Positions 2,960 through 6,553 of a stretch of 64,000 nucleotides of DNA are shown piece by piece. Below the pieces are notes generated by a model that had not been told where the DNA came from, ran no database searches, and saw nothing but the letters and a program-made list of their open reading frames with translations. This DNA comes from Escherichia phage EAWsc9, in the sequence record PQ341120.1. One strand, 5' to 3'. Position 1 is the stretch's first letter, and each line of letters starts with the position of its first letter. The position numbers and the translations under genes are program-made.

Positions 2960-3568
2960 TCACTTTAAGATGTTAATAACATGTTGAATGTTTTCAGTTG
3001 ACATATGATTGTCAATGTAGGTATTCAATCCACCTACTTTAACGCTAAATCCCACGTCTGTAAACTGTTTTACTATCTTTTGTTCAGTATTATACGCATG
3101 CACACGAATCTGACCATCACGACGGACATCAATCTGTTTTAATGTCTTGACTCGCTTGAACTTCACAATCAGATTACTGCGGTCTTCTGAAATGCTCTTA
3201 AAGTCAATACCAATAGACAACAATTGCTCTTTGATATATTCTGCAGTCGCTTCCATTTCATCAGTCACACCGCGTTTTGTTCTTGTCTTCTTCACTTCCA
3301 GAAGGTCAGGATTATTTTCATTCGCCCACAGTTCAGCTGCATCCAGAATAAGGTCAACACCTTTTTCTGTAACCATCAAACCATCACCAGAAGCTTCAAC
3401 ATAGTTGTTATTCAACAATGTCTGCACGCTATCAATTGACGTGTTCTGCTGGCCTAAAACAACCTCAGGACGCACGAAGTTGTTTTTGTATACAAACACC
3501 AGAGCATTAACATCAGTCTCATGTAGAGCGTTCTGGGAGCATTTAACGATATAATTTAGCTTGTTCAT
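2960..3568 (-). CDS. motA: Middle-transcription activator MotA
   Basis: 202 aa; SGDGLMVTEKGVDLI and C-terminal FTDVGFSVK region match my recollection of T4 MotA; position adjacent to 52. Confidence 0.6.
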   Translation of the reverse strand: MNKLNYIVKCSQNALHETDVNALVFVYKNNFVRPEVVLGQQNTSIDSVQTLLNNNYVEASGDGLMVTEKGVDLILDAAELWANENNPDLLEVKKTRTKRGVTDEMEATAEYIKEQLLSIGIDFKSISEDRSNLIVKFKRVKTLKQIDVRRDGQIRVHAYNTEQKIVKQFTDVGFSVKVGGLNTYIDNHMSTENIQHVINILK

Positions 3569-4005: not shown

Positions 4006-5385
4006 TCATAGAGCCTCCAAATCATTAAGGTATTCAGTTTTAACGTCAGTTGTCTTCCAGTACTCATGCTCAGCTTTCTTAGCCTTAGCTTCGTCCGCAA
4101 GCTTCTTAGCTTCATCAGAGGTCATATGGTAGATGTTCATTGCCACTAACTTCTCTGCATAATCGCCATATATTTCACTTGCCTGGAGCTCCTCAATCAA
4201 CTTCTTACGAGGTTTCCCCTGGATAACAACCTTACCATCAATCACTTCTTTAATAAAGAAGACTTTCGCGCGGGCCAGTTTAAATGCCGCTTCAGTTTCT
4301 TTAATCTTACTGTCAATTCGCACTTGGACATAAGTCTTACGAACATCAACGAAATCGCGAATCAGGTCAAGCGTGTTGGTGTATTCAGCCAGTTTACCTT
4401 TGTGATTAAGCACAGTTAAGTTCTGGGAGAGCTTCTCAATCAGACCAAAGTCTTTCATGATTTTCTCATGATTCTCTTCTTCAGTGCCATCCAACTTGTA
4501 TTCTTTGCGGAATTTAATCTTAAACCCAAAACCATGCTCGCCACAGTTATCTTTCCAGGTGATAAAACCTTTCTCTTCCAGTGGGTCCAGGATTTTACTT
4601 GTATATTTTTCCAGGTTCCATTGGACCGGGATTTCAGTAATTTCCATTTGAGTCCGGGAAGTCATTTTGTACGTGCCATGAAGTTCATACTTACCAGGCT
4701 CTTCCAGCTCAACAACTTTACCACGGAATTCTGGATATTTTACTTTCGGAGCAACCGGCTCACGACCTTCCACGATAGCTTTAACAGCTTCCTTGACGTC
4801 CTGGAACGAATGAGGAAGGATATCAGTAGCAAAGCCAACAGCAATCCCAGAAGTGGCGTTAAGTAATACAGTAGGAATAACAGGAAGATAAAAAGCAGGA
4901 GGCTTATGTTCTTCATCAGGATGGACCGGAGCATATTCTGTATCCTTAAACAAGTTGTAAAAGTTCTTTGAAACCCTTGCGAATACATAACGAGCTGATG
5001 ATGCTTCTGGCACCATTCTGGAACCAAAGTTGCCTTGCCCATCAAACATGGGGTATTCATTTTTATATGTTGCGACCAAACCAGAAGTTGCTTCTTCCGC
5101 TGATGCTTCGCCATGGTGATAACCATAATCAGCTACACCCCCTGCGATGGATGCAACCTTATGGAATTTATTTTTATCACCACGTGCCAGGTCTAATGCT
5201 CTCGCCATAACAAATCTGTGAACTGGTTTAAAACCATCAATCATGTTTGGGATGGCACGACCTTCCACAGTGTAGATAGCGTATGACAATGCTTCCACAT
5301 CAATAATGTCTTTTAGACTGCGTGGGTTAAGGGTCCCCATGGAATCACTGAACTGTTTGGACATCATACTTAAAACGTCAGACAT
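4006..5385 (-). CDS. 52: DNA topoisomerase II medium subunit gp52 (GyrA-like)
   Basis: 459 aa; AIPNMIDGFKPVHRFV...GNFGSRMVPEASSARY...YLPVIPTVLLN typical of GyrA/gp52 catalytic region; SD AAGGTGA. Confidence 0.93.
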   Translation of the reverse strand: MSDVLSMMSKQFSDSMGTLNPRSLKDIIDVEALSYAIYTVEGRAIPNMIDGFKPVHRFVMARALDLARGDKNKFHKVASIAGGVADYGYHHGEASAEEATSGLVATYKNEYPMFDGQGNFGSRMVPEASSARYVFARVSKNFYNLFKDTEYAPVHPDEEHKPPAFYLPVIPTVLLNATSGIAVGFATDILPHSFQDVKEAVKAIVEGREPVAPKVKYPEFRGKVVELEEPGKYELHGTYKMTSRTQMEITEIPVQWNLEKYTSKILDPLEEKGFITWKDNCGEHGFGFKIKFRKEYKLDGTEEENHEKIMKDFGLIEKLSQNLTVLNHKGKLAEYTNTLDLIRDFVDVRKTYVQVRIDSKIKETEAAFKLARAKVFFIKEVIDGKVVIQGKPRKKLIEELQASEIYGDYAEKLVAMNIYHMTSDEAKKLADEAKAKKAEHEYWKTTDVKTEYLNDLEAL

Positions 5386-5393
5386 ATATCACC

Positions 5394-5534
5394 TTACCAA
5401 ATTAACGAATGTACTGCCATTATAACATCAGAAATAAAAAGCACAACCTGCACTAATGCAAATACAACTCCATAATACAGCGCTACCAATAAGGCAGCAA
5501 GGGCTAACGAGTAGCCCAAGATTTTCTTAATCAT
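5394..5534 (-). CDS. Small hydrophobic protein (46 aa), ac/stp region
   Basis: MIKKILGYSLALAALLVALYYGVVFALV...; stop directly before SD of gene 52. Confidence 0.4.
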   Translation of the reverse strand: MIKKILGYSLALAALLVALYYGVVFALVQVVLFISDVIMAVHSLIW

Positions 5535-5538
5535 TTTT
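5493..5538. repeat. Repeat A copy 1 (46 nt, contains GGGCTA/TAGCCC hairpin)
   Basis: Identical to 5748..5793. Confidence 0.7.
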
Positions 5539-5679
5539 ATCCAATAATTTAAATAGTGTTAAAGTCGCTAATACACCTTGAGCTGTTGACTGCAGAAATA
5601 CTGAAGTTTCTCCAGTTATTAATGTTCCAACAAATAAAAATGACCAACAGAAAAAAGCTACGCCATGAACAAATTTCAT
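5527..5679 (-). CDS. Small hydrophobic protein (50 aa)
   Basis: MKFVHGVAFFCWSFLFVGTLITG...; SD GAGGAAAAT; ATGA overlap with next ORF. Confidence 0.4.
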   Translation of the reverse strand: MKFVHGVAFFCWSFLFVGTLITGETSVFLQSTAQGVLATLTLFKLLDKND

Positions 5680-5736
5680 ATTTTCCTCAAGGGCGTCCAA
5701 AGACGCCAGTTAATTTCAGATTATGACGATACCATT
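5676..5736. repeat. Repeat B copy 1 (61 nt, GGCGTC/GACGCC hairpin + SD + ATG)
   Basis: 60/61 identity to 5941..6001. Confidence 0.7.
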
Positions 5737-5789
5737 ACAGCGCTACAGGCAGCAAGGGCTAACGAGTAGCCCAAGATTTTCTTAATCAT
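5721..5789 (-). CDS. 22-aa peptide with lipobox-like LAAC (MIKKILGYSLALAACSAVMVSS)
   Basis: Shares first 14 codons with ORF 5394..5534; ATGA overlap with upstream ORF. Confidence 0.2.
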   Translation of the reverse strand: MIKKILGYSLALAACSAVMVSS

Positions 5790-5793
5790 TTTT
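5748..5793. repeat. Repeat A copy 2
   Basis: Identical to 5493..5538. Confidence 0.7.
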
Positions 5794-5944
5794 TCACGTA
5801 CCGTGCCAGACTTACAATTCCAGAAATAACCCATGCAATAAACATCGCGCCCATGAAAAATGTGCTTGGAGTCCAGACTCCCAAAAAGAAGCAGACTGAA
5901 CAAACCACGGCAATAATAAGTTCAATAAAAGCCAGAATAATCAT
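5786..5944 (-). CDS. Small hydrophobic protein (52 aa)
   Basis: MIILAFIELIIAVVCSVCFFLGVW...; SD GAGGAAAAT; replaces track ORF 5721..5903 in another frame. Confidence 0.4.
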   Translation of the reverse strand: MIILAFIELIIAVVCSVCFFLGVWTPSTFFMGAMFIAWVISGIVSLARYVKK

Positions 5945-6001
5945 ATTTTCCTCAAGGGCGTCCAAAGACGCCAGTTAATTTCAGATTATGACGATGCCAT
6001 T
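5941..6001. repeat. Repeat B copy 2
   Basis: 60/61 identity to 5676..5736. Confidence 0.7.
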
Positions 6002-6033
6002 GCATCACGTGTTCATTATGGAAATTACTCATA

Positions 6034-6480
6034 TTAATAGCTCTGCAGAATGAATTTAAAGTTATCAGCAAGCATGCGATTCATTTCTGAAAGGGTCTGG
6101 CAATCAGAACTATGCGAGCGAGTGAACGCCATTGCAATTTGACCTTTACCATAACCAGTTGTCAGAGGTTTCATTTTAGAAACTGGGACAAACAGGACTT
6201 CATAGATAACCCCATTGTTCGCCATTGTGCGAGACAGTTGAGAACGTTGTTTGCGGATGTGACTTAATACAGTGTCAAACCCTTGTTGTGAACGTTGGTT
6301 ACCAACATAAAAACGTGCAGCAACAATACGTGATTCGCCTTCACCTTTAACCACGAAATAAAAACCTGGTTGAGTGATAGCTTCTTTAGTCGGACGCCCG
6401 AGATAATTACCATTATGGATGTAAGCAACAGTGGTAGCGCCAGCATTCAGTACGTCACGACGGGTCATGTAAGTAGACAT
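6034..6480 (-). CDS. ndd: Nucleoid disruption protein Ndd
   Basis: 148 aa; PGFYFVVKG...[14 protein letters not shown]...[11 protein letters not shown]...[12 protein letters not shown] matches my recollection of T4 Ndd; position between 52 and denB. Confidence 0.65.
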
Positions 6481-6524
6481 ATTAATTTCCTCAGTAAGTT
6501 AAAGTTTTGTGCTCCAGTGGGGTC

Positions 6525-6553
6525 ATTATACTCTGACCCCAAGAGTTTGTACA
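6525..6553 (-). promoter_or_regulatory. Early promoter stem-loop cassette upstream of ndd
   Basis: TGTACA-17-TATAAT with GGGGTCA/TGACCCC inverted repeat around the -10; 44-nt block identical to 17730..17773. Confidence 0.5.

Follow-up and report, generated by a model that had tools for sequence, protein, structure and literature searches.

A hetero-allelic partial tandem duplication at the ac locus of the T4-like Escherichia phage EAWsc9

How did two copies of the same short sequence blocks come to enclose two different small genes between ndd and gene 52 of Escherichia phage EAWsc9? The locus lies in a 64,000-nucleotide (nt) stretch of the genome (PQ341120.1; hereafter the window, whose numbering is used for all coordinates), and all genes in this part of it are on the minus strand. 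An initial annotation had read positions 5394-6001 as a duplicated cassette of small open reading frames (ORFs), with conserved hairpin-bearing boundaries and diverged interiors. Our analysis shows instead that the locus is a hetero-allelic partial tandem duplication in the T4 hyperplastic region, a well-known type of event requiring no new mechanism. Very probably, one illegitimate crossover between gene 52.1 and stp set two alternative single-slot haplotypes, one carrying ORF-Y and the other ac, in tandem.

Along the gene strand, the order is ndd-stp-Y-52.1'/'stp-ac-52.1-52, whereas T4 has ndd-stp-ac-52.1-52 at the same locus. An intact stp gene of 26 amino acids (aa; 5952..6032), encoding the activator of the host PrrC anticodon nuclease, starts 1 nt past the ndd stop codon. 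It is followed by ORF-Y, a very hydrophobic 52-aa protein (5786..5944), and by a truncated 22-aa version of 52.1, termed 52.1' (MIKKILGYSLALAACSAVMVSS; 5721..5789), which overlaps ORF-Y via ATGA. An untranslated stretch of 42 nt separates this 22-aa ORF from ORF-X (5527..5679; 50 aa, MKFVHGVAFF...), whose end is overlapped by the intact gene 52.1 (5394..5534), encoding a 46-aa membrane protein that starts MIKKILGYSLALAALLVALYYG. The stop/start overlaps between the slot ORFs and the ORFs that follow them are ATGA or AATGATTAA. The four small ORFs described initially (52, 22, 50, and 46 aa) were all present, on the minus strand and with overlapping stops and starts. The locus originally delimited is therefore real, but its upper end had been misplaced by overlooking stp; because the intact 26-aa gene occupies 6032..5952, the feature reaches 6032 and not 6001.

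Two pairs of direct repeats were confirmed with a repeat finder. D1 spans 64 nt, and its copies a (5676-5739) and b (5941-6004) agree at 62 of 64 positions (97%) with a spacing of 265; D2 spans 47 nt, and its copies a (5492-5538) and b (5747-5793) agree at 47 of 47 positions (100%) with a spacing of 255. D1 is mostly coding and comprises the final 14 codons of stp, its TGA, and the Shine-Dalgarno sequence GAGG and ATG of the next ORF, the ATG being set off from the stp codons by an 8-nt spacer. In copy b this stp end belongs to the intact gene and the ATG is that of ORF-Y; copy a is an stp 3' remnant with no start codon of its own, which supplies the Shine-Dalgarno sequence and ATG for ac. D2 consists of a few last bases of a slot ORF plus the opening 14 codons of 52.1, joining the end of ORF-Y to 52.1' in copy b and the end of ac to intact 52.1 in copy a. 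No promoter-like site was found inside D1 or D2 on the gene strand. Although near-identical tandem blocks containing GGCGTC/GACGCC and GGGCTA/TAGCCC inverted repeats had been correctly described, these blocks are not free-standing borders: by their reading frames, they are the duplicated coding ends of the conserved neighbors stp and 52.1 rather than dedicated cassette boundaries. Nor are they non-coding terminator repeats with no ORFs between them, as the ORFs are genes of conserved families.

The 26-aa product matched the Pfam Stp family over its full length (PF08133; 55.3 bits, cutoff 25) as well as phrog_6763, in agreement with T4 synteny; the second copy (5676-5739) holds codons 12-26 only and is startless, and was thus not counted as a member. 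The 46-aa product matched DUF7396 (gp52.1), also full length (75.8 bits, cutoff 27), and is identical to T4 gp52.1 at 40 of 46 residues. From its family and position, ORF-X is identified as the ac orthologue, and it may confer acriflavine sensitivity. It aligned with T4 Ac (BLASTP E value 7e-9, 40% identity over 48 aa), fell into phrog_2501 (E value 2.3e-23; about 250 phage records), carries the label "acridine resistance" in the annotation of relatives, and is 100% identical to its counterpart in MN01. Its placement between stp and 52.1, its length of ~50 aa, and its overlap with the 52.1 start all fit ac. ORF-Y belongs to phrog_9347 (E value 1.7e-19; 87 phage records) and is 98% identical to the ORF of TH44. 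The same family includes VR7 gp281 (referred to here as Z) and is the sole slot occupant in Dhakavirus, Karamvirus, Edwardsiella PEi20, and Serratia CHI14-like phages. Ac and phrog_9347 proteins are both ~50 aa and hydrophobic (grand average of hydropathy 0.8 and 1.75), with no similarity detected between ORF-X and ORF-Y by BLASTP (E value 0.18) or hhalign (probability 0.9%) and assignment to different PHROGs. The interiors are therefore unrelated rather than diverged. Likewise, the locus is indeed the one at which T4 carries ac and stp, but nothing has been replaced there, as stp is intact and one of the ORFs is ac itself.

Compared across related phages, the slot between stp and 52.1 differs in its occupant (X, Y, or Z) and is doubled in some. 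About 580 T4-like genomes contain the flank blocks, and as a rule the slot of such phages is filled by one gene for a small membrane protein, of the Ac type or the phrog_9347 type. Every single-slot relative examined had the arrangement stp-[X or Y or Z]-52.1, in which the stp end (a hairpin plus TGAGGAAAATATG) forms the left flank, the 52.1 start forms the right flank, and TGAGGAAAATATG stands invariant before the slot ORF. Judged from these genomes, the slot is polymorphic for small hydrophobic ORFs whose contents are exchanged across conserved flanks. When the window was collapsed in silico across D1 or D2, gap-free single-slot products were obtained, 97.6% identical to pEC-M719-6WT.2 (stp-ac-52.1) and 97.7% identical to TH44 (stp-Y-52.1). 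Its nearest relatives genome-wide are single-slot ac phages, namely, MN01 (96.5%), pEC-M719 (98.3%), and YenM_P8 (98.0%). In the alignments with pEC-M719 and YenM_P8, matching begins again precisely at 5941, where D1 has its edge; relative to these two phages, the window thus carries a clean 265-bp insertion.

The novel junction between 52.1' and 'stp (GTAGCGCTGTAATGGTATCG; 5727..5746) lies in patchy, imperfect microhomology between 52.1 (GCGCTGTATTATGG) and stp (GTGATGCAATGG). After codon 14, 52.1' lacks 5 nt (GCTGCC-TTATTG-GTAGCG becomes GCTGCC-T-GTAGCG), and the shifted frame continues for six codons into the stp remnant. Among 50,697 phage records, the same junction, including the 5-nt loss, was found in TH40 and DCP80 only, each with its own substitutions. 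No further junction was retrieved from IMG/VR with a gapped 52.1'..'stp pattern, and the 5' block of 52.1 matched only once in each of 24 contigs from IMG/VR, metagenome, and genome collections, with no doubled locus among them.

Identities among the window, TH40, and DCP80 differ by segment: 96-98% in the backbone (52 and 52.1), 94-100% in the repeat blocks, 85-90% at the junction, which is the fastest-evolving segment among the three genomes, 86-100% in X, and 65-80% in Y. Moreover, ORF-Y of TH40 is a visible mosaic of those of the window and DCP80. Because of this pattern, we conclude that the interiors were replaced or patched after the join by ordinary homologous recombination in the conserved flanks. 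The suggestion of recombination-driven diversification thus held in part: small-ORF contents are exchanged across conserved flanks, with interiors at 65-86% against a backbone at 96-98%, but what is exchanged is not a duplicated cassette. Copies of a repeat are not always identical within a genome (DCP80 and TH40 each show differences of 1-3 nt), and between genomes the repeat blocks have diverged (0-6%) to the same extent as the backbone. Concerted evolution or gene conversion was considered as a means of holding the repeats identical and was rejected as unneeded; the blocks show no similarity in excess of the backbone, so that homogenization need not be invoked.

These data are consistent with an ancestral crossover in which codon ~20 of 52.1 in one genome copy would have been joined, at the patchy microhomology, to codon ~11 of stp in another. 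The Y and ac haplotypes would thereby have come to lie head to tail, as is seen directly in the gene order, and the two pairs of direct repeats would be a by-product, namely, the duplicated gene ends. The repeats would have persisted because the expression signals of the adjacent slot gene lie in them, the RBS (ribosome-binding site) and start context in the stp end and the overlapping stop/restart in the 52.1 start. Only joins keeping both segments would express both slot genes, which would explain why the repeats comprise exactly these segments. Recombination of D1 with D1 or of D2 with D2 is predicted to regenerate a single-slot ac or a single-slot Y phage. If the crossover fell at the very 5' end of D1, the two mismatches on the junction side would be carried over and stp would be disrupted; a crossover within the 51-nt identical core of D1 would leave stp unbroken.

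Several points weigh against this account. Only three genomes carry the junction, and one of the records, TH40, is flagged UNVERIFIED. The DCP80 record (PQ671644.1, 140,978 bp, "complete genome") holds the ndd-stp-slot-52.1-52 region twice, at 33.2-34.1 kb and 136.6-137.8 kb (L036, L001); the copies are ~96-97% identical and comprise a single-slot Y locus and a doubled one, which points to a probable mixed or mis-joined assembly. The microhomology is imperfect, so that the crossover can be placed only approximately, and TH40 differs from the window there by 2 nt. That Y, ac, and the 22-aa ORF are translated is a prediction from intact ORFs, Shine-Dalgarno sequences, and family membership. Finally, the doubled state may be selected or merely tolerated.

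Doubling of the ac slot is recurrent. In JS98, IME281, UP19, Esco_phi_B-01, and EcWhh-1 (7 records, with at least 99% identity), the order is stp-[Ac-like, 49 aa]-52.1'/'stp-Y-52.1, with a variant of this arrangement in NC-G. The JS98 locus (IMGVR_UViG_641509422) has the same position, the same two families, and a 52.1'/'stp junction with the stp-end hairpin and ribosome-binding site (RBS) kept. It differs from the window in its reversed order, with the Ac-like gene first and Y second, in a join at the 7-nt microhomology GAGTAAT that connects codon ~23 of 52.1 to codon 4 of stp, and in the lineage of its remnant: intact stp is of the Gaprivervirus type, whereas the remnant is of the Dhakavirus/T4 type. 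Because the intact and remnant copies differ in this way, recombination must have taken place between two different parental phages. Whereas 52.1' has suffered a frameshift in JS98 and an internal deletion in NC-G, no doubled genome has a disrupted slot ORF. Judged by its order and junction, the JS98-type doubling is independent of the event in the window. That Ac-type and phrog_9347-type genes were combined twice independently suggests that the two families are not redundant.

A third architecture, found in 51 Tequatrovirus records, places two Ac paralogues one after the other between stp and 52.1; examples are pSs-1, slur07, Sf22, and Aplg8 ("acridine resistance (x2)"), and it also occurs in two metagenome contigs. 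As in the window, two small membrane ORFs thus stand between stp and 52.1. Here, however, both belong to the Ac family (one MKFVHG-type, the other MNIAKLL-type), the second is served by a separate RBS (TTGAGGAGAATATTATG), and neither stp or 52.1 remnants nor flanking direct repeats are present. Two further loci were observed in passing. L022 resembles a deletion derivative whose stp, having lost the stop codon, continues for 59 aa. In NC-G (L035, positions 719-829), the decayed 52.1' is in frame with the stp remnant and forms a 36-aa ORF, possibly encoding a second, N-terminally extended Stp-like peptide beside intact stp.

No description of the doubled slot was found in the searchable literature, and the doubling is unannotated in the JS98 records; the structure is present but unannotated in public genomes.

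Each repeat contains a hairpin with a 6-bp stem, GGCGTC-TTTG-GACGCC in D1 (5957-5972 in copy b and 5692-5707 in copy a) and GGGCTA-CTCGT-TAGCCC in D2 (5756-5772 in copy b and 5501-5517 in copy a). Both are retained from T4 through to Dhakavirus and Gaprivervirus. In the nine different variants of each hairpin, all 54 of 54 stem cells were paired, with variation in the loop and flanks; stem changes amounted to 4 and 2 one-sided, G-U-compatible transitions with 0 compensatory changes, and shuffle controls were uninformative. The stems use minority codons (GGC, GTC, GGA, and CGC, each 15-20% of the codons for its amino acid in this phage), with a joint probability of ~0.001 per hairpin in a post-hoc calculation. 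Fold energies were unexceptional relative to shuffled sequence (z -1.1 to -1.4), and an Rfam search of the hairpins gave no relevant match. In T4 and Dhakavirus, the loop of the stp-end hairpin is C(UUCG)G, reportedly the classical stable tetraloop first noted in T4 mRNAs by Tuerk et al. in 1988. On these patterns, the hairpins are probably selected RNA features that contribute to mRNA stability or translation context at the slot ends. Nothing suggests that they are recombination sites, because neither of the two independent junctions lies in a hairpin.

On the gene strand, no T-run follows the hairpins, and terminator-like tails occur on the antisense strand only. There, on the plus strand, all four hairpins have T-rich, terminator-like tails (5 such structures found against 1.4 expected, the four being two duplicated pairs). 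No plus-strand gene lies upstream of them, so that any role would concern antisense or late read-through transcripts.

The best-surviving alternative is a dedicated cassette system, comparable to promoter early stem-loop (PeSL) elements or integrons, in which the hairpin blocks would be adaptors specialized for recombination and expression that capture, stack, and pop out small membrane-protein genes, with the doubled locus as a working intermediate able to release 255- or 265-bp circles. In its favor are the long conservation of fully paired, G-U-compatible stems, their unusual codons, the fast turnover of slot contents, and at least 2 independent doublings by 52.1 x stp joins; PeSL-flanked ORFans, moreover, are known to form mini-circles (PMC2839356). 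We nevertheless consider such a system improbable. The blocks are coding ends with no sigma-70 promoter and no T-run after the hairpin on the gene strand, the stems show no compensatory double changes, the shuffle controls are uninformative, the folding energies are ordinary, and the two independent junctions occupy different positions outside the hairpins. Furthermore, no stack of more than two was seen and no additional junction emerged from the IMG/VR, metagenome, and genome collections, and the existing junction has been stably inherited across diverged genomes.

A related proposal is that the stp 3' end and the 52.1 start are selected adaptors, that the ac slot is an exchange-and-stacking site for envelope-targeting proteins, and that carrying both is selected; we give this only an outside chance. 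If this were true, doubled loci could resolve reversibly to either single allele or pass on a circle of 255 or 265 bp to another phage in the same cell, and the site would constitute a coding-embedded analogue of PeSL or integron cassettes, pairing Ac-like efflux-pump modulators with a distinct phrog_9347 partner.

The 22-aa ORF had been singled out for its lipobox-like sequence. It consists of 52.1 codons 1-14, the 5-nt loss, and an out-of-frame reading of the stp remnant, in which the frameshift creates a Cys codon. Under a rule demanding Lys or Arg in the n-region, an uncharged h-region, and [LVI][ASTVI][GAS]C with Cys at position 15 or later, a regular expression equivalent to the PROSITE rule matched MIKKILGYSLALAAC in the window, TH40, and DCP80. 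Both the ORF and its match are thus genuine, but the peptide is a frameshift product with an unconserved tail. A functional mini-lipoprotein, with signal peptide MIKKILGYSLALAA preceding the Cys, would agree with conservation of that Cys codon in all three genomes and with placement for translational coupling to ORF-Y through the ATGA overlap. It is highly unlikely all the same: all differences in the 7-residue tail are non-synonymous (CSAVMVSS, CSAVMTSS, and CSDAMASS), no family was matched in Pfam or PHROG searches, and the ORF is not kept in the JS98-type event, where JS98 has a 9-codon stub and the NC-G remnant is fused to stp. The expression is also permissive, as the T4 Ac N-terminus MNIAKLLGVISFICWIVAC (L008, positions 3343-3498) fits it, probably by coincidence, while the Ac orthologue of the window does not. 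Most likely, to judge from its origin and variation, the 22-aa ORF is a tolerated by-product of truncation.

If, as originally pictured, a single stp-ORF-52.1 unit had simply been duplicated in tandem and the two interior ORFs had then diverged rapidly, this would explain why the units are of similar length (255 and 265 bp) and each hold a ~50-codon hydrophobic ORF between near-identical borders. Such a history is extremely unlikely, since no similarity was detected between X and Y, each has a 98-100% identical counterpart as the only slot gene of other phages, and borders that still agree at 97-100% could not enclose interiors so far diverged. It was accordingly rejected, the collapse products also matching natural single-slot loci; what was joined, once, between 52.1 and stp was a pair of unrelated alternatives. 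That an assembler linked a mixed lysate of ac-type and Y-type phages across their shared flanks has next to no chance of being right: short shared repeats do confuse assemblers and the DCP80 record resembles a mixed assembly, but the junction, with its 5-nt loss and non-homologous 52.1/stp join, is found in neither parental haplotype and so cannot itself stem from assembly, three independent datasets contain it with their own substitutions, and the JS98-type doubling is present in at least 5 independently sequenced phages.

Upstream of the doubled slot lies ndd (6034..6480, minus strand; 148 aa, nucleoid disruption protein), which is annotated as such in all relatives and stands in the same order as in T4; downstream is gene 52 (4006..5385, minus strand; topoisomerase II medium subunit), assigned from the annotation of relatives. 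The best promoter-like site of the region is TGTACA-17-TATAAT (10 of 12 matches; 6553..6525, minus strand), upstream of ndd. From this early-promoter-like site, ndd-stp-Y-52.1'-ac-52.1-52 would probably be co-transcribed. ORF-Y would use the RBS at the end of intact stp, ac would use the identical RBS kept in the stp remnant, and 52.1' and 52.1 may be translated by coupling at their overlapping stop/start codons, such that both slot proteins are predicted to be made. At the promoter-like site, we also observed an inverted repeat, GGGGTCA...TGACCCC, which straddles the -10 box (6515-6553, intergenic); the combination of promoter and G/C stem-loop resembles PeSL.

A second variable spot was seen between ndd and stp. 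In UPEC07, UPEC01, TH40, TH44, and NC-G, an insert of ~166 bp encodes a 57-aa hydrophobic ORF (phrog_5941, MRHFF.MGYLFVLALF...); the insert is absent from the window at 6033. In the insert-bearing phages, an in-frame upstream ATG would lengthen Stp to a 52-aa MIKLLLLCALVV...-Stp protein.

Taken together, the locus offers a base-pair view of a T4-like phage gaining a second accessory gene with its neighbors undisturbed. A single illegitimate join of flanking genes from two co-infecting phages would stack alternative alleles, with the duplicated gene ends serving as ready-made translation signals. In these terms, "ac" denotes a slot common to two unrelated families of small membrane proteins and not one conserved gene. 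The finding bears on phage annotation, in which stp, the remnants, and the second slot ORF are usually missed or mislabeled, and also on current ideas of Ac function. Ac renders infected cells acridine-sensitive, a phenotype known only for T4, and a 2025 preprint proposes that it blocks AcrAB-TolC efflux (bioRxiv 10.1101/2025.06.30.662393; cited in PMC13250531).

The nearest concept in the literature is modular shuffling by the PeSL elements of T4-type phages (Arbiol et al. 2010, PMC2839356; Comeau et al. 2014, PMC4122927), which are intergenic and unite an early promoter of the sigma-70 type with an AT-rich upstream element and a stem-loop terminator. The window is similar in that small non-essential ORFs of a hyperplastic region lie between short conserved stem-loop repeats, insertion, deletion, and replacement differences between close relatives are explained by homologous exchange at these repeats, and excision of small circles is possible in principle. 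As with PeSL-flanked ORFs, the slot contents distinguish close relatives, with X, Y, or Z set in a backbone that is 96-98% identical. The window differs in that D1 and D2 sit in the stp and 52.1 coding ends and not between genes, that neither repeat has a promoter or a gene-strand terminator tail, and that the arrangement goes back to a one-off illegitimate join. Because the blocks are coding and lack both a promoter and a gene-strand terminator tail, membership of the PeSL elements was rejected.

A further comparison is with the classical tandem duplications of the T4 rII region, which are said to have been attributed to illegitimate recombination in the work of Weil, Symonds, and Parma in the 1960s-70s; recombination in T4 reportedly has a homology requirement of ~50 bp (Singer et al. 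in 1982). In both cases, a novel join at short homology yields direct repeats that are able to segregate by homologous recombination. The classical duplications, however, extend over kilobases, are homo-allelic, and are unstable, whereas that of the window spans 265 bp, is hetero-allelic with 47-64 bp of homology, and has been stably inherited.

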